Positions 333 to 23,341 of a stretch of 52,329 nt of DNA are shown one piece after another. How positions within the stretch are numbered: position 1 is the stretch's first letter; each line of letters starts with the position of its first letter. The translations under genes and the position numbers were made by a program. The DNA is from Escherichia virus TH53. The DNA lies in the sequence record MT446419.1; one strand, given 5' to 3'. The notes under the pieces are model-generated. The model saw only the letters and a program-made list of their open reading frames with translations, made no database searches and was not told the DNA's origin.

Positions 333-2273
333 ATGACTACTATCACCACTCAAACTATCAAATCCGTTGTTCCTGCTATCACTGCTCTGGTATACCGTGC
401 CAAAGAGAAACAGAACTATATGCAGCCTCAGACTTGTGCTATTGCTGCCTTAGCCATCTTCAAGATGATGACGTCTTTCACTCGTGATGACGTTGTTCCT
501 GCCATCGCGATGGTTGAGCTGGCTTCTGCTTCTATTGCTGATGCCAACCGTTATAACAACGATTTGAAAGCAATGCACTATGTTGACCCAGCTATCAACC
601 TCATTGGTCTGGCTAAGCACTTTGGCTTCATCACCATGAACGAAGACAAGTCATTCCAACAAACTGATACATGGGTTGAGCTGGTTACAACTAAAGACAC
701 CGCAGTGCCATTCACTGAGCGTGTTACATCTGAATCTCGTCGCAAGCCTTTCGTTAAAGGTGGCAAAGTTAAGCCATCCAAGACTCTGAAAGCTGCAATC
801 GAATTCCTGCAAGATACTGAGTACCATGTGGAGACTGAGATGGTTCGCATCATCCAGTCCATGATTGAGCAACGTACTTATGGTGGCTTGCAGATGCCAG
901 AAGCAATCCAGACTGAACTCCATGTTTGGAACAATGCTGTAGCAATGATGAATCAGGATAAGCTGTATTCTGACTACTTTGCTGATAACCGTGGTCGTCT
1001 GTATCATGTAGCATGTGCTGGTCCTAACCCACAATCCTCTGACTTTGCTCGTTGCTTGTATTCTCACAATGTTGAGAACATCGTTAAAAAGTTTAACGAA
1101 GATGGTTCTACTACCATTGCATACAACATGTTCATGGCTGAGCTGGAAGATATTTCCGGTGGTGAATGGTGCAGTGCTAAGCGTTTAACTTATGTTGCTC
1201 AGAATCCAGCTGGTTCACTTGCTCGCATGATGAACATGCCTAAAGCTGAACGTCCTTCTAAGCCATTCACTTATGTTCGTCTGGCTCTGGATTGGTTCAA
1301 GTTTGAGACTACAGGTGAGTGTGATTCTCGTGTAGGCTTCGGCTTAGATGCTAAATGTTCTGGTACTCAATATCTGGCATTCATTGCTGGTAACATGGAA
1401 ATGGCTCGTGCAACAGGTCTGGTTGATTCTGAGACTAAAGCATCTGACCCATACCAGTTATCTCTTCGTGAACTGTTGAAGTTATTGGACCGTTCTTCAA
1501 TGAAGCCATCTCCTGAAATTATGGATGAATTCTTGAATCCGAAAGCTGGTCGTAAGTTTATCAAAACTCCATACATGGCTATCCAATATGGTGGTGGTAA
1601 AGCTGCATTGACTGGTTCTTCTGACTTCATTAGCTACATGACAGAAGCGCTCCAGATTCCTATGGAGAAAGCTGAGGCATTTGCTGAACTGTGTGTAGAA
1701 GCAATCCATAACGCATTGGGTGCTAAGATTAACATGTTCATTGAGAAGGCTGCTGATGCTGCATACAACCGTTGTGTTGAACTTGGTAAAGAGTACATCA
1801 CATACCGTCACACTGATGGTCAGGTTGTAATGAAGCCTTGCTTCCCATCTCGTGAAATCTGTGAGGCATTCAGCATTCGTGTTGACTCTCAAACTCGTGT
1901 TATCTTTGGCCAGATTCAGGAGAATAAGCCTTGGACCATTCGTGAATCCAATCCAACTAAAGAAGAATTCAAGCGTACTTTCGTTGTTAACTACATTCAA
2001 GGTATTGACGCATTGGTTGCTCGTACTGTTGCAGTTAAGGCTAAAGAAGCTGGTCTTCGTGGCTTCACTTCAATCCACGATTGTTTCCGTTGCTGCTTAG
2101 CTGATGCTCCACGCATGATGGAAGTTATTCGTGCAGCATATGTTGAAATCTTCGTAACCAACAATCAATTCGAGAATCTGTCTAAGCAACTTGGTGGCAT
2201 TCAGATGTATCATGAGAACATCGTAACCGAAGAGCTTCTGATGAGCGAACACGCTTACTACTTCTGTCAATAA
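333..2273 (+). CDS. single-subunit T7-like DNA-dependent RNA polymerase, short 646-aa form
   Basis: Seen: motif B-like RKFIKTPYMAIQYGGGK (T7 RSVTKRSVMTLAYGS) and motif C-like SIHDCFRC (T7 HDSFGT). Inference: about 240 aa shorter than T7 RNAP, so most of the N-terminal domain is absent. Confidence 0.85.
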   Translation: MTTITTQTIKSVVPAITALVYRAKEKQNYMQPQTCAIAALAIFKMMTSFTRDDVVPAIAMVELASASIADANRYNNDLKAMHYVDPAINLIGLAKHFGFITMNEDKSFQQTDTWVELVTTKDTAVPFTERVTSESRRKPFVKGGKVKPSKTLKAAIEFLQDTEYHVETEMVRIIQSMIEQRTYGGLQMPEAIQTELHVWNNAVAMMNQDKLYSDYFADNRGRLYHVACAGPNPQSSDFARCLYSHNVENIVKKFNEDGSTTIAYNMFMAELEDISGGEWCSAKRLTYVAQNPAGSLARMMNMPKAERPSKPFTYVRLALDWFKFETTGECDSRVGFGLDAKCSGTQYLAFIAGNMEMARATGLVDSETKASDPYQLSLRELLKLLDRSSMKPSPEIMDEFLNPKAGRKFIKTPYMAIQYGGGKAALTGSSDFISYMTEALQIPMEKAEAFAELCVEAIHNALGAKINMFIEKAADAAYNRCVELGKEYITYRHTDGQVVMKPCFPSREICEAFSIRVDSQTRVIFGQIQENKPWTIRESNPTKEEFKRTFVVNYIQGIDALVARTVAVKAKEAGLRGFTSIHDCFRCCLADAPRMMEVIRAAYVEIFVTNNQFENLSKQLGGIQMYHENIVTEELLMSEHAYYFCQ

Positions 2274-2313: not shown

Positions 2314-2514
2314 ATGAATACTCAACAAATCAATCAAATCGAAAACTGTTTCAATCCTCACCACACTTGTAGCATGACTGATTTATCTCGTCCTACAGTG
2401 GAGGAGACTAAAGACTTCTTAGAATTGTTAGCAGAATATAAACAAGAGTCGCATGTATTATTACATTCATTCTTACACAATTCTGGATACTTTGATACAG
2501 AGATACCATTCTAA
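2314..2514 (+). CDS. hypothetical small protein with C-terminus ...GYFDTEIPF
   Basis: ORF in track from 2290; second in-frame ATG at 2314 has GGAG 7 nt upstream. C-terminal FDTEIPF resembles the E. coli SSB tail DFDDDIPF. Confidence 0.45.
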   Translation: MNTQQINQIENCFNPHHTCSMTDLSRPTVEETKDFLELLAEYKQESHVLLHSFLHNSGYFDTEIPF

Positions 2515-2520
2515 TATTGA

Positions 2521-2546
2521 GCCTGTCTTCGGACGGGCTTTTCTTG
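2521..2546 (+). terminator. intrinsic terminator-like hairpin
   Basis: GCCTGTC-TTCG-GACGGGC stem-loop (one G-U pair) followed by TTTTCTTG, directly after the stop at 2514. Confidence 0.5.
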
Positions 2547-7351: not shown

Positions 7352-7370
7352 ACATTAGTTGGATTTGAAG
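7352..7370 (+). promoter_or_regulatory. motif ACATTAGTTGGATTTGAAG, copy 3
   Basis: Ends 74 nt upstream of the ATG at 7444, the same spacing as the copy before 13357. Confidence 0.55.
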
Positions 7371-7443: not shown

Positions 7444-7818
7444 ATGGCACAATATTCAGATGTAAACACTGGCATCATCGGTCCTAACGGCTTCAAGAAA
7501 GACCCAAAACATCCTGACATTCGTGGACGTATTAACGTTGACGGAATCTGGTATTGGGTATCTGGCTGGAACAAGCAAGCAAATGGTAATGAGTTTACCT
7601 CACTTGCATTAACCATCATGACCCAAGAACAGGTCGATGAAATGATGCGTAAGCGTGAAGAGAAGGCTAAAGCCAAAGCTCAACCTCAAGCTGCCGCTCA
7701 ACAGCAACAGCAACGCCAGCAGCCTTCTGCACAACAGCAAGCACCTGCTCAGCAACAGCAGCAGAGCAACTACAACCCGAACGAGCCGAAAGACTTCGAC
7801 GACGACATTCCGTTCTAA
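7444..7818 (+). CDS. protein with E. coli SSB-type C-terminal tail (DFDDDIPF), possible ssDNA-binding protein or SSB-tail mimic
   Basis: Seen: C-terminus PKDFDDDIPF preceded by a Q/A-rich linker. Established: DFDDDIPF is the E. coli SSB C-terminal tip that recruits SSB-interacting proteins. Inference: the N-terminal 70 aa may be a small OB-like domain. Confidence 0.6.
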   Translation: MAQYSDVNTGIIGPNGFKKDPKHPDIRGRINVDGIWYWVSGWNKQANGNEFTSLALTIMTQEQVDEMMRKREEKAKAKAQPQAAAQQQQQRQQPSAQQQAPAQQQQQSNYNPNEPKDFDDDIPF

Positions 7819-7939
7819 TGGAGATGCCCTATGAAAATTTTATGTTTTATAGGGCTACATAATTGGGAGATTTCTCATACAAACGATTATGTAACCTTTT
7901 GGGTATGCAAGAACTGTTCAACAATGCGTGAGGAATATC

Positions 7940-8629
7940 ATGGCAAATAAATTTGTCGAAATACCTGCCAATTTGGTAAAGCCCGGTGATGTATTGATTT
8001 ACGGCAACAGGGAATACCGGATTGAAAACATACTCCGGTTTAGTAATGCAGTTCAGTTGCAATATTCTGGTGGGTACTACAATTTTGAATTTGGCCGCAT
8101 AGTCAAAGTGCTCGACAGGCCACCAGCTTTGGAAACTCCAACAGCAACATTCAACACCCAGATAACACCAGTATTTCTCCCTTATGGTGAAGCAGTGAAG
8201 CCATTCTCAGATGAAGAGGATGTTAAAGGCGCTGATGTAGAGGTTGGCGATGTTATTTGGTACAAGGGCAATTGGGCAACTGTTACAAACGTCTACAAGC
8301 ATCCAAACTCGCCATACAATAAAGTCAATATTGACCATGATGATGTAAAAGGTCTGCAAGTACGCCTGACATTATCTGGAACTTATTCGAGAAAGGTAAA
8401 AGCAATAATGGAAACATTAAATATTCAAAATGCAATCGAAGCACAACGTATTCTTCTGCAAAAGCTGGAGCAAATGCTCGATTTAACCCAGCTTCCACCA
8501 ACAGAAGATGGCAAGATTGCAATTGGCAACTGTAATATTCGCGTGGACAAGGCAACAGTTGTTAAAGCCGCACGCGATGAAATGAAAGCTGCCGCAAGCA
8601 AATCCGCAGAGCTTATCAAGAAGCTGTAA
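7940..8629 (+). CDS. hypothetical protein
   Basis: ORF in track from 7928; ATG at 7940 has GAGGA upstream. Confidence 0.55.
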   Translation: MANKFVEIPANLVKPGDVLIYGNREYRIENILRFSNAVQLQYSGGYYNFEFGRIVKVLDRPPALETPTATFNTQITPVFLPYGEAVKPFSDEEDVKGADVEVGDVIWYKGNWATVTNVYKHPNSPYNKVNIDHDDVKGLQVRLTLSGTYSRKVKAIMETLNIQNAIEAQRILLQKLEQMLDLTQLPPTEDGKIAIGNCNIRVDKATVVKAARDEMKAAASKSAELIKKL

Positions 8630-8817
8630 TTAACAGAGGTCATTCCACTTCGAGTGGCCTCGATTAATTATTGGAGGATTTATGTGGGATATTTATCTTG
8701 AAGGTGTTGACGAGCCAATTTCAACACTTAATACACAATTTATTATGGTTGGGTGTGCAATTCTTTATAAAGGTAAGTTACACACTGTATCTAAAATAGT
8801 TCAGAGGCATTAATTCC

Positions 8818-11324: not shown

Positions 11325-11343
11325 ACATTAGTTGGAATTGAAG
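11325..11343 (+). promoter_or_regulatory. motif ACATTAGTTGGAATTGAAG, copy 5
   Basis: Tandem with copy 4, about 140 nt downstream, separated by an AT-rich stretch. Confidence 0.5.
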
Positions 11344-11979
11344 AAACAACATCAGATAATAACTTTGTAACTCGGTAGACCGTTGCGGCCGCATCGTGTG
11401 AGAATGTTCGACTCATTCTACAAAGTTATTTTCGATGGAATGTTTCCATCATATACATTTATCTTTTAACATAGGCCATAGGGCCGGAATACTTCTTCGC
11501 AGAAAAGCTATTCACTTGTTATAGGCGATGTATTGGGATGAATTGGAACTAAATAAGCAAGCTGTTAGGGCTGAATAATTAGAGGGTCATGCCTCATGCT
11601 TATGTTAGTCATTCGAAAATAGGTTTGTGCCACAAGCTGCTGGTGCTCTGAGGAAGTCGGACAAACAGGGCTTAGAGTGGCATAATCCGCACAAAACCGC
11701 GCCACCAGCTATGCCAAAGCAGGTGGATTGGGTGAATGTATTGGGAAGGGTTGCAAAGCCTCTGTGACACGCCTGAGCCACAAGGCGACGACACTCATGT
11801 GATTAGCGTATCGCACCCTAACGGGAGCAACCCTTCACCAATGCAGTTATCCAGAATTGACACAAACGGTAGGCAGTGGCCCGATTTTCGGCCTTCCTGC
11901 GCTACTCTGTGGCCTGTTTCCTGGGCCAAAAGATGAGAAGAGAAGTCACAAACATCGAATCGAAAATTGGAGAGTTCCT

Positions 11980-12270
11980 ATGATTCGCAAACATTCTATC
12001 CGGGTCATTAAGGCCCGCAATATTCACACAGGAGAGATGGAAGCATTTGCTTTCTTGGGTGGAAGGTTTTATTTATTTGGTTGGGAAGGAAGCAATTCAA
12101 AGTTTGCATTCTTTATGAATATGTATTCGATTAAAGAGTTGTTAAACAATGCGACCTACAACCCATCTTTCATGGAATATTGTTTCGGCAAGCCAGTCGA
12201 ACATCTTCTATCCAAATCCTTCATTTACAGCTGGACAACAGACCAGCCAATGTACGGAGTTCCATTTTGA
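11980..12270 (+). CDS. hypothetical protein
   Basis: ATG with GGAGAG 5 nt upstream; the track ORF extends to 11857 but that start lacks an RBS. Confidence 0.45.
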   Translation: MIRKHSIRVIKARNIHTGEMEAFAFLGGRFYLFGWEGSNSKFAFFMNMYSIKELLNNATYNPSFMEYCFGKPVEHLLSKSFIYSWTTDQPMYGVPF

Positions 12271-12557
12271 ACTTACAAGACAAATCTAAAGAAGAGTTGA
12301 TTGAGATTATCCAGAAAGAGCACGAACTCGCTGGCATCACGATTAACTTTGAACTCCAGGCAATGCAAGCTGTTGCTTTGGGGCATGGTCTAATGGCTAC
12401 ACTCATTCATGCCAAGAATGTGTTAGGCGTTGACAACGAAAAATACCAAATTCTGGAGAAAGCTGCGCAAGAGCGGATTTCGCAGTGCTTGGTGACATTA
12501 GTTGATTTGGGAATCGACGCAGAAACTGCGAACAAACGTATCCTACAAGGCCACTAA
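12267..12557 (+). CDS. hypothetical protein (TTG start; alternative ATG at 12180)
   Basis: GGAG 7 nt upstream of TTG overlapping the upstream stop; start uncertain. Confidence 0.35.
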   Translation: MNLQDKSKEELIEIIQKEHELAGITINFELQAMQAVALGHGLMATLIHAKNVLGVDNEKYQILEKAAQERISQCLVTLVDLGIDAETANKRILQGH

Positions 12558-17334: not shown

Positions 17335-19101
17335 ATGATGAACGTTAAGCAATGTGTTGCCAAGATTAAACACGATGTACCAGACTGTAAATCCACATCT
17401 GGCAAGTCCTTACAGGTTTGGTTGAATGTCGATGAAGCTGGTAATAAGAATTTCTCTGGTTACTGCTTTGCGTGTGGCGTTCTAGTACCAAATCCTTATG
17501 GCAATAATCCGGAGAACATTCCAGAGATTAAAGTCAAGACTCCAGAAGAAATTCAGGAAGAAGTTGACGAAATCACTGCTTGTCCTCCGTTTGATTTAAC
17601 CCATCGCAGCATCGAGCCAGAATTCTGGAAGGCTGCTGGTGTTCGACTCCTGTATTCAGAGTATGATGGTAAGACTCCAAATGCTCTGGCACATGGCTAC
17701 ACCAAAAATGGTAAACTTGTTCGTTGGAAGATTAAACTTCTGAACAAGAAAGTTATGTGGTCGGTAGGTGACACCCAGGGCAACGACCCTTACAACTGGA
17801 TGGCTGCAAAAGCAATTGGCGGTAAGACACTGTTCATCACAGAAGGTGAAGAAGACTGCATCGCATTGCGTCAAATCCTCAAAACTATGAACCGTGGTGG
17901 TGCATATGAAGATTTGGATTTTGCTGTAATTAGTTTGAGTGATGGAAGTGATTCCGTACACAAATGTTTGTCACCAGTTGCAGAAGAAATTAAGCAACGT
18001 TGGGAGCAGGTTGTTATTGTATTTGATGATGATGAACCTGGACGTAAAGCTGCAAAAGAAGCGTGCCGATTGTTGCCTGGTGCAATGATTGCAACACTTC
18101 CAGCTAACGATGCCAACGATTGTTTGAAGCGTGGCTTGCTCAAAGCTACTCAATCAGCTGTTGTGTTCCGTGCTGCTCGTCCTCTGCCTACAGCACTTGT
18201 CAACAAAGAACTTCTTATGGAAGAGCTTGATGATGAGGTTGAACAGGGTGTGGATTATCCTTGGCCCAAGTTAACCGACTTAATGTTTGGTCAGCGTCGA
18301 GCCGAAGTTATTACAATCGGTGGTGCAGAAGGTGGTGGTAAAACTACCTTGTCCCGTCAGATTGTGCATCACAACATTACCAAGCACGATTGGGGAGTGT
18401 TTACTGCATACATGGAGGAAACTCCTACAGAAACACTGCGCCGAATGGCTGGCCTTAACGACAACTTGCCATATTGGGAACCTGCGTTTACTCGTGAAGA
18501 CCCTCGATATGATGAAGCTAAGTTCCGTCAAACTGCTGCGAAGATGCTTCGTAACATGGAGATTTGGGACCGCAAGCAAGCTGGAGAAGACCCTTATGAA
18601 ACCTGGGATGGGTTGAAGACGATTCTTCGTCAGATTGGACCAGACATTGATATGTTTGTCCTCGATAACTTAACCTACTTATCAGAAGGGATTTCTGCGT
18701 CAGAGAAGAACGACTTTCTGGGCAAGCTGTATGCAGACATTACAAAGTTAGCAGACCAGTACCAGTTCCACGTTAATATTCTGTCGCACCTTAACCCTGT
18801 TGCGAAAGGTCAGCGACCTCATGAAGATGGTGGACGTATCAAGAAGTCAGACTTTACTGGCTCTCGTGCTGCTGCTAAATATTCTCATGGCATGTTTGGC
18901 TTTGAACGTAATAGTCAGGCAGTTGACCCAAACTGTTCTATCATTCGTTCCATTAAGGCTCGTAAGAGTGGTAAAACAGAAGGCTTCAAGACGTATTATG
19001 ACACCGAATCTGGTCGAATTATTCAACGTTCTTGGGATGACTCGCTGTTCGAAACCAAAGAGATTGTTCAACTTACTAAGAAGAACGGTCCACACCAATA
19101 A
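17335..19101 (+). CDS. bifunctional DNA primase / DnaB-like helicase (T7 gp4-like)
   Basis: Seen: N-terminal Cys zinc finger, TOPRIM-like ITEGEEDCIAL and VIVFDDDEPGRKA, Walker A ITIGGAEGGGKTT, Walker B-like DMFVLDNLTY. Confidence 0.9.
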   Translation: MMNVKQCVAKIKHDVPDCKSTSGKSLQVWLNVDEAGNKNFSGYCFACGVLVPNPYGNNPENIPEIKVKTPEEIQEEVDEITACPPFDLTHRSIEPEFWKAAGVRLLYSEYDGKTPNALAHGYTKNGKLVRWKIKLLNKKVMWSVGDTQGNDPYNWMAAKAIGGKTLFITEGEEDCIALRQILKTMNRGGAYEDLDFAVISLSDGSDSVHKCLSPVAEEIKQRWEQVVIVFDDDEPGRKAAKEACRLLPGAMIATLPANDANDCLKRGLLKATQSAVVFRAARPLPTALVNKELLMEELDDEVEQGVDYPWPKLTDLMFGQRRAEVITIGGAEGGGKTTLSRQIVHHNITKHDWGVFTAYMEETPTETLRRMAGLNDNLPYWEPAFTREDPRYDEAKFRQTAAKMLRNMEIWDRKQAGEDPYETWDGLKTILRQIGPDIDMFVLDNLTYLSEGISASEKNDFLGKLYADITKLADQYQFHVNILSHLNPVAKGQRPHEDGGRIKKSDFTGSRAAAKYSHGMFGFERNSQAVDPNCSIIRSIKARKSGKTEGFKTYYDTESGRIIQRSWDDSLFETKEIVQLTKKNGPHQ

Positions 19102-19187
19102 CAGAGCTGCTACGCTGCATGGTTCGCCCACCAGCGTGGCCCTCACCAATCCATTGGAGCCATACTGTGTTGTATCCTTGGGAAAAT

Positions 19188-21101
19188 ATGTATGCCAGTG
19201 ACATTGAAACAACTGGCCTGTTGGAGCAAATGCGCAAGCAAGCTGCCCCACGTCTTCACAACATCGGATATATTGATGTTCTGACTCGTGAAGAAACTGT
19301 AATAGAGTGGACCGACAGAAAGTCTATCCAGGCATTTCTAGATACAGGCCCAACATTAATCATGCACAACGGCGCAACCTTTGACTTTGAAGCACTGAGG
19401 TTCCTGGGCTACGACGTTTCAAAATGTACACTAATTGATACTTTGTTTATCAGTTGGTATCTGCAACCTCGTCGTGTTAAGCACGGCTTAGAAGGTTACG
19501 GCGAAGAGTTTGGTGTGCCAAAACCAGTCATTGAAGATTGGGAAAATCAAACTCAAGAAGAGTACAACCATCGTGTGATGGAAGACTGCAAGATTCAGTT
19601 GAAGCTGTGGGAACAGCAATACATTCAACTCTTGAAGATTTATAAATCTCCTAGCGAAGTTAAGCGCTTCGTTGAATACCTGATGACAAAAGCTCGTCAA
19701 CAAGTTATTCAACAACGTACTCGCTGGAAGCTAAACATTGAGAAGGCATTGGCATTTAAGGCCAAGCTGGAACCAATGATTAAAGAGAAGACGGACGCGT
19801 TGGAAGCATCAATGCCACGTGTTCCGGAATATGTTATCAAGACCCGTCCAGCTAAATGCCACAAAATGAACGGGCAACTGTCTGCCACTGGAATTAAGTG
19901 GAAGGCTATTTGTGATGCAAATGGTTTGGATTGGAAAGACCCAGACCTGGCTATCAAAGTTCTTAAAGGTTATAAGAAGCCTAATGCTGGTTCACATGTT
20001 CAAATTAAGGATTGGTTGTTCAGCCTGGGTTGGGAACCGGAAACCTTTAAGTTTGACCGTAACAAGGAAACAGGTGAAACTCGCCAGATTCCGCAAATCA
20101 CTGTGAAGGATGAAGATGGCAATCCTGAAATATGTCCGAGCTTGCATAAGCTGGCGGAAAGAAACCCCGACTCTGGTATTCAACATCTTATTGGGATGGG
20201 CGTGTATAAACACCGTCTGTCTGTTGTTAATGGCTTCCTTCGCGACGTCGATGAAGATGGGTTCCTTACTGCACGATGTGGTGGCCTTACCAATACTTTA
20301 CGCCTTAAACATCGCGAACTTGTTAACCTCCCTTCTATTCGCGTATTTGGCGGTGAAGAACTGCGTTCAATGTTGGAAGCGTGGCGTGAAGACTACGAAC
20401 AGTTAGGCTCTGACTTATGTTCTCTGGAAGACCGTTGTAAGCACCACTTCCAATGGATGTATGACCCTGAATACGTTAAGAAGCAGTTGGCACCAGACTA
20501 CGATGCTCACCTTGCAATCGGCGTAATTGGTGGATTTATTACCGAACAGGAATCTCAGGACCACAAGGACGGAATTAAGAAGTGTAAACAACGTCCAATG
20601 TTTAAGACCACAAACTATGCTTGTCAGTATGGTGCTGGTATACCGACTGTAGCCCGTTCTGCTGGTTGCGACCAGAATACTGCTGCACGACTGCATAAAG
20701 CATATTGGGACTTGAACTGGTCAATCAAAGAGATTGCTGCAAACACTAAAGTTATCACAGTTGATGGTCAGATGTGGCAACAGAATCCAGTAAACAAATT
20801 CTGGTATTCGTTGCGTACAGAGAAAGACAGATTCTCCACATTGTGCCAGGGTACTGGTGCATATGTGTTTGATATCTGGTGTAACAACATCATTGCAATT
20901 TGTAATGAACGTTGGGGCTGTGACCCGCTTCTGTCTGGACAATTCCATGATGAATTGATTCTCCAGGTTAAGAAAGGCTTCCGAGATTTGTGGACGGACT
21001 TACTTAATGAAGCAATGGACCGAACCAACAAAGAACTTAAACTCAATCGTGATTGTGCATGTGATGTACAATTTGGCGATAACTACGCAGAGATTCACTA
21101 A
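19188..21101 (+). CDS. family A DNA polymerase with 3'-5' exonuclease domain (T7 gp5-like)
   Basis: Seen: Exo I MYASDIETTGL, Exo II HNGATFDFEAL, motif B KTTNYACQYGAG, motif C QFHDELIL. Start set at the ATG 19188; the track ORF opens at 19119. Confidence 0.9.
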   Translation: MYASDIETTGLLEQMRKQAAPRLHNIGYIDVLTREETVIEWTDRKSIQAFLDTGPTLIMHNGATFDFEALRFLGYDVSKCTLIDTLFISWYLQPRRVKHGLEGYGEEFGVPKPVIEDWENQTQEEYNHRVMEDCKIQLKLWEQQYIQLLKIYKSPSEVKRFVEYLMTKARQQVIQQRTRWKLNIEKALAFKAKLEPMIKEKTDALEASMPRVPEYVIKTRPAKCHKMNGQLSATGIKWKAICDANGLDWKDPDLAIKVLKGYKKPNAGSHVQIKDWLFSLGWEPETFKFDRNKETGETRQIPQITVKDEDGNPEICPSLHKLAERNPDSGIQHLIGMGVYKHRLSVVNGFLRDVDEDGFLTARCGGLTNTLRLKHRELVNLPSIRVFGGEELRSMLEAWREDYEQLGSDLCSLEDRCKHHFQWMYDPEYVKKQLAPDYDAHLAIGVIGGFITEQESQDHKDGIKKCKQRPMFKTTNYACQYGAGIPTVARSAGCDQNTAARLHKAYWDLNWSIKEIAANTKVITVDGQMWQQNPVNKFWYSLRTEKDRFSTLCQGTGAYVFDIWCNNIIAICNERWGCDPLLSGQFHDELILQVKKGFRDLWTDLLNEAMDRTNKELKLNRDCACDVQFGDNYAEIH

Positions 21102-21373
21102 TGAAAACTGTATATTCTATTTTCGATATGCAGGAATTGGAGCATCACATGTTTGCTACTGATTCCGAAGTTCTTGCAAAGGATGCCGTAATGGCGTTTC
21201 TTGAAAAGATTAAGGGCAACGTATTCGCTTCGTCCGACCCACAGTCTCAAGCACTTAATGACGAGACATTTAAAAGTCTCCAAACTTTAATTTCGGCAAC
21301 GTCTTCATTTGAAGAGCTGTCCGAAGCATTAGTTGAATATGACTTCCGACTTGCTATGTTGCAGGTCGACTAA
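21101..21373 (+). CDS. hypothetical protein
   Basis: ORF overlapping the DNA polymerase stop. Confidence 0.5.
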   Translation: MKTVYSIFDMQELEHHMFATDSEVLAKDAVMAFLEKIKGNVFASSDPQSQALNDETFKSLQTLISATSSFEELSEALVEYDFRLAMLQVD

Positions 21374-21403: not shown

Positions 21404-22270
21404 ATGGCATTTGCTGCTCCTACACTGGCCTCGAACAAGACTCCTTCTGCTGCACCATTACTGGAAGCGGGTGGTTATCCTGCTCGTGTTTGCCGTATTA
21501 TCGACCTGGGCTTACAGCCTGGTTCTGCTAAATATCCTACTCCGTCCCTGAAACTTCTGGTGACTTTCGAACTGCTCGACGAATACATGAAAGAAGTTGA
21601 CAGTGAAGGTAAAATGGTCATGGTTCAAGACCCAGACGAAGATGACGGCATCATGATGGCGAAGAATCTTGAAGACAAGCCGCGTTGGTTTGACTTTGAG
21701 TTTACCTATAATGCTGACGGCTTCATGGGTGAGAACTCCCACATCTACAAATTCGCTAAGGCGATTGATGCACTGGAAGTTAAACCTAATCTGGAACAAG
21801 GCATTCAGGGCCATCCTGCCAAGAACCTGCCAGATTGGTTGGGCGAACCTCTGATTGTTGGCATTGTTCAGTATACCAAGCAGTCCGGTAAGAATGCTGG
21901 CCAGGTTGCAAACAAAGTTGCTACCTTCTCTCCGATGAAATCTAAGGAGAAGAAAGAAGCTAAAGCTCTGGTTAACCCGACTGTCTTCTTTGACATGTCC
22001 GAGCCGGACTTAGAAGTATTCAACAAACTGCCAGGTGGCGAATCTCCGTATGCAATCAAGAACCGTATTACTTCCGGTGTTGATTTCTACAAGACCAAGC
22101 TGTCTGCACTGTTAGGCGGTAAACCTGCCGATGAAGGCGCTGTACCGAATCAGGCTTCTGATGAAGAAGTTGATGCAGCTATGAAAGCTGAACTGGAAGC
22201 ACAGGCTGCTGCAAAAGCACAGCGTGAAGCGGAAGGTGGTGCTGCTGGCGGTACGGGTATGCCGTTCTAA
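21404..22270 (+). CDS. hypothetical protein, possible T7 gp2.5-like ssDNA-binding protein
   Basis: Gly/Ala-rich acidic C-terminal linker ending in MPF; sits after the DNA polymerase and before a strong terminator. SSB assignment is inference. Confidence 0.35.
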   Translation: MAFAAPTLASNKTPSAAPLLEAGGYPARVCRIIDLGLQPGSAKYPTPSLKLLVTFELLDEYMKEVDSEGKMVMVQDPDEDDGIMMAKNLEDKPRWFDFEFTYNADGFMGENSHIYKFAKAIDALEVKPNLEQGIQGHPAKNLPDWLGEPLIVGIVQYTKQSGKNAGQVANKVATFSPMKSKEKKEAKALVNPTVFFDMSEPDLEVFNKLPGGESPYAIKNRITSGVDFYKTKLSALLGGKPADEGAVPNQASDEEVDAAMKAELEAQAAAKAQREAEGGAAGGTGMPF

Positions 22271-22280
22271 TTATAAATAT

Positions 22281-22305
22281 GGCTCCTTCGGGAGCCTTTA
22301 ATTTT
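22281..22305 (+). terminator. intrinsic terminator
   Basis: GGCTCC-TTCG-GGAGCC hairpin followed by TTTAATTTT. Confidence 0.65.
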
Positions 22306-22318
22306 GGAGCTTACCAAA

Positions 22319-23341
22319 GTGAGTAAGAAACGGGTTTTGTTGCTGGTTGACGGCGACATGGTTGCATTCAGCCACTGTGCTGCTGAGGAATACGGCAAAG
22401 ATTCAGAAGATATTAACTTTGCTAAGATTCAAATGTCAATGGATTCCAAGATGGAATTCCTTGCGAAACGTGTAGGCGCTACAGAAGTAGTTACCTGCAT
22501 TTCACCATCCAAAACATTCCGTAACGTTCTTGCCGAGAATTACAAAGGCAATCGTGATGATGTTTGGCGACCAGAAAACTTGAAGAATGCGAAAGCACAT
22601 CTTATGGTTGCCTGGAATGGCGTATGGATGAAAGGTCTGGAAGCAGATGACCTCCTTGCCGTATTCGCACGTCATGAATACGAAATGACAATGGGTAAAC
22701 GTAATGAGATTAAGAGCCTCAAGCGCATTGGTCCTTGCACATATGATGAAGTCTGGATTGCGTCGCTGGACAAAGACTTGCGACAAATCGGGCAGAATGG
22801 TGGTGCTGGTCCAGTAATTAAACATTACCAATGGGAACGAGAAACCCAAGGTATTGGTGAGAAGGTTGTAACTCCGAAGGATTACGGCGAACTCAAATTA
22901 ATCATCAAGGACAATGGCAAATCGAAGAAGAAAGAAGTTAAAGGCAATGGCCCTAAATTCTTCTTGCATCAATTGCTTATTGGCGACTCAACAGATAACG
23001 TTATGGGTTGCGGAGTTCTTGAAGAAAGAATCTACAAAACTGGTGCCAAAGCCGGAGAAACTTATTTCCGTCGTGATGGCATTGGTGCAGTTGCTTCATT
23101 CGAAATGCTGGATGGCACAACATCTTATGCAGAAGGTTTGAAGAAAGTTATTGGTGCATATATTGTGCGCTTCGGAGATGGTTGGGAACAGGAGCTGCTC
23201 AAAGTGGGCCGTCTTGTTTACATGCACCATCAAATTGAAAAGGGTAATTGTGTTCGCTTGTGGCATTACAAGAACATTAACGAATACTTTGACCTTAAAG
23301 AGAATCGTATCCTCACTCAAGAAGAGTACCTCCAGAAATAA
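22319..23341 (+). CDS. 5'-3' exonuclease / flap endonuclease (T4 RNase H, T7 gp6 family)
   Basis: Seen: LLLVDGDMVAFS, GLEADDLLAV, LLIGDSTDNVMG. Start uncertain (GTG 22319 or TTG 22304). Confidence 0.75.
   Translation: MSKKRVLLLVDGDMVAFSHCAAEEYGKDSEDINFAKIQMSMDSKMEFLAKRVGATEVVTCISPSKTFRNVLAENYKGNRDDVWRPENLKNAKAHLMVAWNGVWMKGLEADDLLAVFARHEYEMTMGKRNEIKSLKRIGPCTYDEVWIASLDKDLRQIGQNGGAGPVIKHYQWERETQGIGEKVVTPKDYGELKLIIKDNGKSKKKEVKGNGPKFFLHQLLIGDSTDNVMGCGVLEERIYKTGAKAGETYFRRDGIGAVASFEMLDGTTSYAEGLKKVIGAYIVRFGDGWEQELLKVGRLVYMHHQIEKGNCVRLWHYKNINEYFDLKENRILTQEEYLQK

Follow-up and report, generated by a model that had tools for sequence, protein, structure and literature searches.

A widely annotated phage "SSB" in Escherichia virus TH53 joins the E. 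coli SSB tip to a predicted non-OB, PC4-like domain

Gene organisation of the phage and of the locus

We analysed a 52,329-nucleotide stretch of DNA from Escherichia virus TH53 (MT446419.1; the whole stretch is referred to below as the window), in which a gene for a 124-aa protein lies among the small genes downstream of the RNA polymerase operon (Table 1). The window is a phiEcoM-GJ1-like myophage of the Chaseviridae, genus Carltongylesvirus. By megablast, the region and the first 25 kb matched 45-79 phage records, and the top relatives, the Escherichia phages EcoM1, ST32, Bp7, SA91KD and phiEcoM-GJ1, shared 90-95% identity. All genes lie on one strand and run from the RNA polymerase gene through small early and middle genes and a T7-like replication module to the structural genes. 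The RNA polymerase of the window is short, that of T7 being 883 aa in length. Rfam and tRNA scans identified no Rfam families and no tRNAs in the window, and no terminal redundancy was found within it. One record that is ~87% identical to this coliphage region is named 'Staphylococcus phage Pel53' (PP952070.1; recorded host S. hyicus), which suggests that the host label of Pel53 is doubtful.

The window contains ten sites with the phage-promoter consensus against 0.38 expected, and the 124-aa gene is the first gene 3' of one of them. The phiEcoM-GJ1 counterpart of this site is 'putative phage promoter 3', which precedes gp15, while SA91KD has an annotated terminator-promoter pair upstream of its SSB gene at the matching position. 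Two further ORFs share the transcription unit of the 124-aa gene, the first of which, a 39-aa Cys-rich ORF, is without a PHROG or Pfam match, and a terminator-like hairpin follows the second. Farther along, ~0.7-1 kb of the window (11342-12500, +) lies 3' of two tandem phage-promoter-like sites (11184 and 11325) and is unannotated in SA91KD. Within this stretch, the ORF at 11857-12270 (+) terminates in ...YGVPF, which we discounted as a tail-bearing protein, the stretch being unannotated in relatives and the ORF without a family match.

Table 1 Features of the window and of the related contigs discussed in the text (positions are those of the window unless prefixed by a contig)
Feature	Position	Strand	Remark
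Single-subunit RNA polymerase gene, T7-like	333-2273	+	First gene; 646 aa
66-aa early protein, C-terminus ...HNSGYFDTEIPF then stop (YFDTEIPF)	2314-2514	+	Last gene of the RNA-polymerase operon
Terminator-like hairpin and T-run, agcctgtcttcggacgggct then tttctt	2520-2545	+	Read from the sequence; 3' of the 66-aa gene
Phage RNA-polymerase promoter-like site, ACATTAGTTGGATTTGA	7352-7368	+	Consensus, 0 mismatches; 5' of the 124-aa gene
124-aa protein	7444-7818	+	Translation ends in DFDDDIPF
Residues 1-79, beta-beta-beta-beta-alpha domain, presumed ssDNA-binding module	7444-7680	+	AF2 model
Residues 80-116, Q/A/P-rich disordered linker, QPQAAAQQQQQRQQPSAQQQAPAQQQQQSNYNPNEPK	7681-7791	+	Composition and pLDDT
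Residues 117-124, acidic tip (DFDDDIPF), and stop codon	7792-7818	+	Identity to the E. coli SSB C-terminus
39-aa Cys-rich ORF, transcription unit of the 124-aa gene	7831-7950	+	gp16 in GJ1, gp20 in SA91KD
233-aa ORF, transcription unit of the 124-aa gene	7928-8629	+	phrog_20048
Terminator-like hairpin	8636-8661		3' of the 233-aa ORF
Primase-helicase	17335-19101	+	Replication module
Family-A polymerase (PolA)	19119-21101	+	Replication module
Phage-promoter-like site	21326-21342		Consensus search; before the 288-aa gene
288-aa protein, NGO0469 family, ends ...GGAAGGTGMPF	21404-22270	+	Between the PolA and 5'-3' exonuclease genes
5'-3' exonuclease	22304-23341	+	Replication module
HNH endonuclease	L004:3290-3900		E. 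coli Chaseviridae contig
HNH endonuclease	L007:5001-5863		Vibrio phage phiVC8 (isolated phage)
Homologue of the 66-aa protein	L011:938-1153		
Homologue of the 66-aa protein	L012:976-1191		

The C-terminal tip is identical to that of E. coli SSB

A sequence-only reading of this DNA had pointed out that the 124-aa protein ends in DFDDDIPF, the C-terminus of E. coli SSB, preceded by a Q/A-rich linker, and both observations hold. Translation gives a C-terminus of ...NYNPNEPKDFDDDIPF followed by the stop codon (a C-terminal stretch also given as NEPKDFDDDIPF, with the tip peptide PNEPKDFDDDIPF), the last eight residues of which are identical to those of E. coli SSB in a PDB alignment (1eqq_A, residues 131-178 of 178; ...SNEPPMDFDDDIPF), and residues 80-116 are rich in Q, A and P by composition. 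The protein thus has the disordered linker and acidic IPF tip of an E. coli-type SSB. AlphaFold2 (AF2) gives the linker pLDDT values of 57-67 with the deep alignment and <50 with the shallow one, and both the length and the sequence of the linker differ among relatives. In the tip, which follows the pattern FD[DES][DES]IPF, residues F118, D119, I122, P123 and F124 are invariant across 21 aligned relatives.

An IPF end is found in 2 of the 481 ORFs of at least 35 aa in all six frames of the window, those of the 124-aa and 66-aa proteins only, so that neither tail is explained by chance. DNA similarity to E. coli genomes extends over only ~33 tip-coding nucleotides at 88% identity with a non-significant E-value, hence a recent capture of the tail from host ssb could be ruled out. 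Phage SSBs that copy the tail of the host SSB are well known, and the tail alone is therefore ordinary.

The N-terminal domain is predicted to adopt a non-OB fold

The 124-aa protein is the counterpart of phiEcoM-GJ1 gp15 and bears the GenBank label "single strand DNA binding protein". It matches PHROG 7364 and PHROG 18154 (E = 5.2e-42 and 2.9e-18), whose name, 'single strand DNA binding protein', is an annotation and not a tested function. No Pfam SSB match was obtained. NCBIfam SSB models scored 23-26 bits where cutoffs of 54-260 apply (TIGR00621: 23.3 bits, cutoff 53.95), and only residues 40-124 of the protein were matched, to the C-terminal ends of the models. The only PDB matches of the protein by phmmer lay in the linker and tail of E. 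coli-type SSBs, and PDB sequence searches with the protein and with its profile gave only the SSB tail and chance matches such as Shiga toxin B. Since SSB models match the linker and tail and not the N-terminus, the public "SSB" label derives from the linker and tail only. Nor did phmmer, run at maximum sensitivity for gp2.5, find a homologue of the E. coli SSB OB domain or of T7 gp2.5 in any ORF of the window.

Structure prediction of the N-terminal domain, which the sequence-only reading had suggested as a check, returned a beta-beta-beta-beta-alpha arrangement in place of an OB fold, a topology of the PC4-like class. The deep AF2 run used a 122-sequence alignment and a shallower run gave an agreeing model. 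Residues 1-79 are modelled at pLDDT 91-98, with strands at 10-14, 26-32, 35-46 and 49-58 and a helix at 61-79, the remainder being disordered. The model thus contains four antiparallel strands followed by a helix, the layout of PC4-like, Whirly and Pur-alpha proteins. With no model match and with four strands plus a helix in the AF2 model, a canonical OB-fold SSB identity was ruled out. The predicted topology is solid, and on this model the domain would be a PC4-like beta-beta-beta-beta-alpha module that is distantly related to DUF736 and weakly resembles the PC4, Whirly and Pur-alpha ssDNA binders.

In hhalign comparisons with the C-terminal domain of human PC4 (the sequence used being identical to 1pcf_A), the broad family profile gave P = 1.5e-4 and a probability of 52% and the narrow one was not significant; no Pfam PC4 match was found. 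Residues D25, G28, Y37 and W38 align onto PC4 D76, G79, Y88 and W89, and S53 and L54 onto S and L. W89 of PC4 is reported to stack on DNA (PMC4350104). Of 122 family sequences, 46 have Y or F at position 26, and K or R predominates at positions 27 and 29. This pattern mirrors F77-K78-G79-K80 of human PC4. Taken as a whole, homology of the N-terminal domain to PC4 is suggestive.

DUF736 (PF05284) was the sole Pfam family repeatedly matched by relatives (8 of 46, best E = 7.1e-5), the 124-aa protein of the window itself giving no DUF736 match. A Foldseek search of viral models returned mainly uncharacterised phage proteins together with one Vibrio-phage "SSB" and one DUF736 protein. No functional description of DUF736 was found in a full-text literature search, and tblastn against a plasmid collection gave no match to the family.

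A large phage family with a conserved three-part layout

The 38 close clusters found all come from Chaseviridae-like contigs and are strongly conserved over residues 1-79, with W36, Y37, W38, W42 and F51 invariant among close Chaseviridae relatives. Among 1.84 billion cluster representatives, a profile built from residues 1-75 retrieved 2259 with E <= 1e-3, of which 138 reached E <= 1e-10, counts that include some artefacts as judged from P0043 (1158 aa, 21 stretches), the second-best profile match, which proved to be a translated tandem DNA repeat (...GYWYSSW...) and was rejected as a false positive. Most family representatives are 70-200 aa in length. A P[FWY] end occurs in 100 of the best 149 and takes the form of acidic residues plus xP[FWY] in 93, the tip variants including DIPF (46), DLPF (9), EIPF (8) and DVPF (5); DDDLPF is reported as the tip of Gram-positive SSBs. 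The layout of a conserved aromatic/basic domain, a disordered linker and an acidic xPF tip recurs across a very large phage family. In several relatives the domain is repeated in tandem, twice or three times in one chain, e.g. phiVC8 p31, P0065, P0072 and P0082 (two copies), as would be expected for a module that pairs. We found no characterisation of this PC4-like, DUF736-related, SSB-tipped family in the literature searched, and it is absent from a 2016 survey of viral SSBs.

In all five other phages inspected, which are unrelated, a family member lies within a replication or recombination module, a placement expected for the SSB of such a module. These comprise Klebsiella K21lambda1 (helicase, DNA pol I, the family gene, PurZ; tail MDFDDDIPF), Acinetobacter SH-Ab 15497 (helicase, DNA pol I, the family gene and, in the PurZ position, adenylosuccinate synthetase; tail DLDDDLPF), Burkholderia Bm1 (helicase and, farther on, the family gene, a tRNA, DNA polymerase and PurZ; tail FDNFDDDIPF), Vibrio phiVC8 (helicase and, farther on, the family gene, an endonuclease, DNA pol I, primase and PurZ; tail MDFDDDIPF plus an extension) and phage C75C1 (Erf, the family gene and, farther on, DnaB; tail KEEAPF). 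The family gene adjoins DNA polymerase I in three of the four PurZ-cluster phages and is one endonuclease gene away from it in phiVC8. PurZ is known from phages with 2-aminoadenine genomes, and the clusters with PurZ or an adenylosuccinate synthetase in its position (L005 of K21lambda1, L007 of phiVC8, L013 and L014) are 2-aminoadenine-type replication clusters.

In an E. coli Chaseviridae contig (L004) and in phiVC8 the stop codon of the family gene is absent and an HNH endonuclease gene stands directly 3' of the final Phe codon, the equivalent of this insertion point in the window being 7813-7830. Loss of the stop adds 15 residues in L004 (APIGLQEGRRYLHCI) and 14 in phiVC8 (MDTYHRQSKLGHCV). 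These endonuclease genes, which reside in unrelated phages, encode homologous proteins (42% identity over 60 aa, E = 4e-12). A homing insertion is the likely origin of the missing stop codons, and the conserved DNA that encodes the tail has the look of a homing site. Extension past the IPF or LPF tip is also seen in about 7 of the best 149 representatives. Docking of SSB tips generally needs a free C-terminal Phe, and masked tips in some relatives indicate that the tip is not indispensable everywhere.

Two further proteins with xPF ends

The 66-aa early protein was confirmed by translation to end in FDTEIPF, as had been read from the sequence. Its ORF has GGAG 7 nt 5' of the ATG, the corresponding database clusters are also 66 aa in length, and SA91KD has an annotated terminator at the place equivalent to the hairpin that follows the gene. 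GJ1 and EcoM1 lack the gene and carry an unrelated one where it would stand. Other Chaseviridae encode relatives, as do N4-like Gamaleyavirus phages in their far-left early region (e.g. St11Ph5 gp1.2), making this an accessory early gene common to two unrelated coliphage families. The terminal PF is invariant in all six aligned sequences; FDTEIPF is restricted to a Chaseviridae subgroup, other relatives ending in EEEHNGCPF, LEAKTGCPF or LESETGCPF. Since only PF is kept and most relatives end in GCPF, the SSB-like tail is a local variant, and the label of an SSB-tail mimic is weaker than had been implied. Its resemblance to the SSB tip is partial. A conserved free PF and early expression would fit a small docking protein for host takeover.

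With the NCBIfam model NF046043 (replication initiation protein, NGO0469 family), the 288-aa protein encoded within the replication module reached 59.6 bits, under the 75-bit cutoff, and two of its relatives scored 115 bits against this model. Its relatives have an aromatic end in 23 of the 23 rows displayed (45 aligned), mostly after an acidic stretch, with one extra residue after W in one displayed relative. Their tails include DDDIPF, EDNPY and EEIEW, GAP52 gp072 ends in DVPFDDDIPF, and in the Chaseviridae members of the family the tail has decayed to MPF, QPF or VPF. Comparison by hhalign or BLASTP gave no similarity of the 288-aa protein to T7 gp2.5, N4 gp45 or the HK620 SSB, the HK620 and N4 SSBs had no match to the NGO0469 model, a DUF669 match was obtained for only one relative (E = 0.0046) and the 288-aa profile had no matches in the PDB. 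An identity as a gp2.5-, N4- or DUF669-type SSB thus found no support from hhalign, BLASTP or the models. Nor was a link found between the 288-aa protein and the ~260-aa proteins whose genes precede the SSB-like gene in phiVC8 and Bm1. It is a rival candidate and may be the replicative SSB, with an auxiliary role for the 124-aa protein in that event.

A proposed role for the 124-aa protein and its alternatives

We favour, at a little better than even chances, the reading that the 124-aa protein is a non-OB phage ssDNA-binding protein which uses a host-type SSB tip to recruit its partners. From architecture, conservation, predicted fold and neighbourhood in other phages we infer its ssDNA binding, oligomeric state and tip partners as follows. 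The domain of residues 1-79 would probably form a dimer, with ssDNA running over an aromatic/basic sheet surface made up of Y37, W38, W42, F51, K18, R27, R29 and K44, and the ~37-residue disordered Q/A/P-rich linker would present the host-identical acidic tip. Its gene being the first after its own phage-RNAP promoter, we propose that the protein is abundantly expressed. It would coat ssDNA arising from phage replication and recombination, and its tip may recruit proteins with SSB-tail pockets, the candidates being host ExoI, RecQ, PriA and chi and/or the phage primase-helicase, PolA and exonuclease. The lack of a detectable canonical SSB or gp2.5 homologue elsewhere among the window ORFs supports the SSB reading. 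A PC4-like protein of T5 has been proposed as its replicative SSB. The C-terminal NDYPPF tail (last six residues) of the HK620 DUF669 SSB is needed for it to work with and load Sak4 (PMC5928155), and the DUF669 and N4 SSBs are recognised by their acidic tails (PMC4889955).

The sequence-only reading had set a phage SSB beside a decoy that titrates or redirects host partners. As a decoy, the protein would display many copies of the host tip and so draw the host repair, restart and exonuclease proteins that interact with SSB off host DNA or off phage DNA, any DNA binding being secondary. We judge the decoy improbable. Strong conservation of the N-terminal domain, whose invariant aromatic and basic residues resemble those of ssDNA binders, argues against it, as does the placement of the family next to polymerase or Erf genes elsewhere, including in a lambda-named and possibly temperate phage. 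The exact eight-residue match to host SSB would suit a decoy, yet D-to-S and D-to-E changes occur in the tips of close relatives, which a precise mimic might not tolerate, and masked-tip variants exist. Other points do favour it, namely that the gene lies among small early and middle genes outside the replication module, that the phage brings a replisome of its own along with a further candidate SSB, and that another small early protein ends in ...EIPF too. An SSB is preferred on account of the family layout and the replication-module context, but not as a homologue of the E. coli-type SSB, the domain being non-OB in prediction and matched by no SSB model. That the public annotation is correct in the literal sense, and that this is an ordinary divergent E. 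coli-type OB-fold SSB, appears scarcely credible; the GenBank and PHROG labels and the weak NCBIfam SSB matches that speak for it are contradicted by the four-strand-plus-helix model and by the absence of any SSB model on the N-terminus.

A cofactor of DNA melting resembling PC4 or N4 gp2/Drc, which would engage both strands of a duplex opened at promoters or at the replication origin and aid the phage's single-subunit RNA polymerase or origin firing, with no general coating of ssDNA, is unlikely but would be in keeping with the PC4-like class of the modelled fold and with the short T7-like RNA polymerase of 646 aa that the phage encodes. PC4-fold proteins bind juxtaposed unwound strands, and Drc, the RNAPII recruiter of N4-like phages, has a sheet that superposes on PC4-fold sheets (PMC7145618).

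Returning to the ssDNA-binding protein with a host-type tip, the tail observation was right and the phage-SSB reading broadly so, the latter having been implied already by annotation. What is new is that a widely annotated "SSB" lacks an OB fold and belongs to a very large PC4-like, DUF736-related, SSB-tipped family that was not found in the literature searched. A possible though rather doubtful reading is that of a very large, unrecognised class of non-OB, PC4-like, DUF736-related ssDNA binders, plugged into the host SSB network by host-type tips and serving as the SSB of many phage replication modules, including DNA polymerase I/PurZ clusters. In the present phage up to three xPF proteins (124, 66 and 288 aa) would then compete for docking pockets, with the 66-aa protein as a tip-only decoy in host takeover.

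Comparison with known systems

If confirmed, this role would supply a function for thousands of "hypothetical" phage proteins and possibly for DUF736, a second independent solution to the SSB problem beside the T5 PC4-like case, and a minimal module of ~80 residues plus tip in which to study the recruitment of partners by tails. SSBs are recurrent triggers of anti-phage defence, so an overlooked class of them would also be relevant to that field.

Like E. coli SSB (PF00436, TIGR00621), the 124-aa protein consists of a DNA-binding domain (here a presumed one), a disordered linker with abundant Q, P and A or G, and an identical DFDDDIPF tip; unlike it, the domain is a beta-beta-beta-beta-alpha module of ~79 residues as against an OB barrel of ~115 residues, and the two domains are unrelated. 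Similarity to the T5 PC4-like protein (PDB 4bg7) and to the human PC4 C-terminal domain is marginal, the present family being closer to DUF736 (PF05284), whose Pfam model is matched by relatives and of which a phage member appears in the Foldseek list. The HK620 SSB (DUF669) and N4 SSB group offers a parallel as non-canonical phage SSBs known by their acidic/aromatic C-terminal tails, but belongs to a different domain family, and no similarity of its members to the 124-aa or the 288-aa protein was found. T7 gp2.5 is a phage SSB with an acidic tail whose terminal Phe docks on phage replication proteins. The 124-aa protein shares with it an SSB-type tail in a phage with a T7-like replisome of primase-helicase and PolA, and differs from this OB-fold protein of 232 aa in that its tip is of the host type (IPF) and not of the gp2.5 type.
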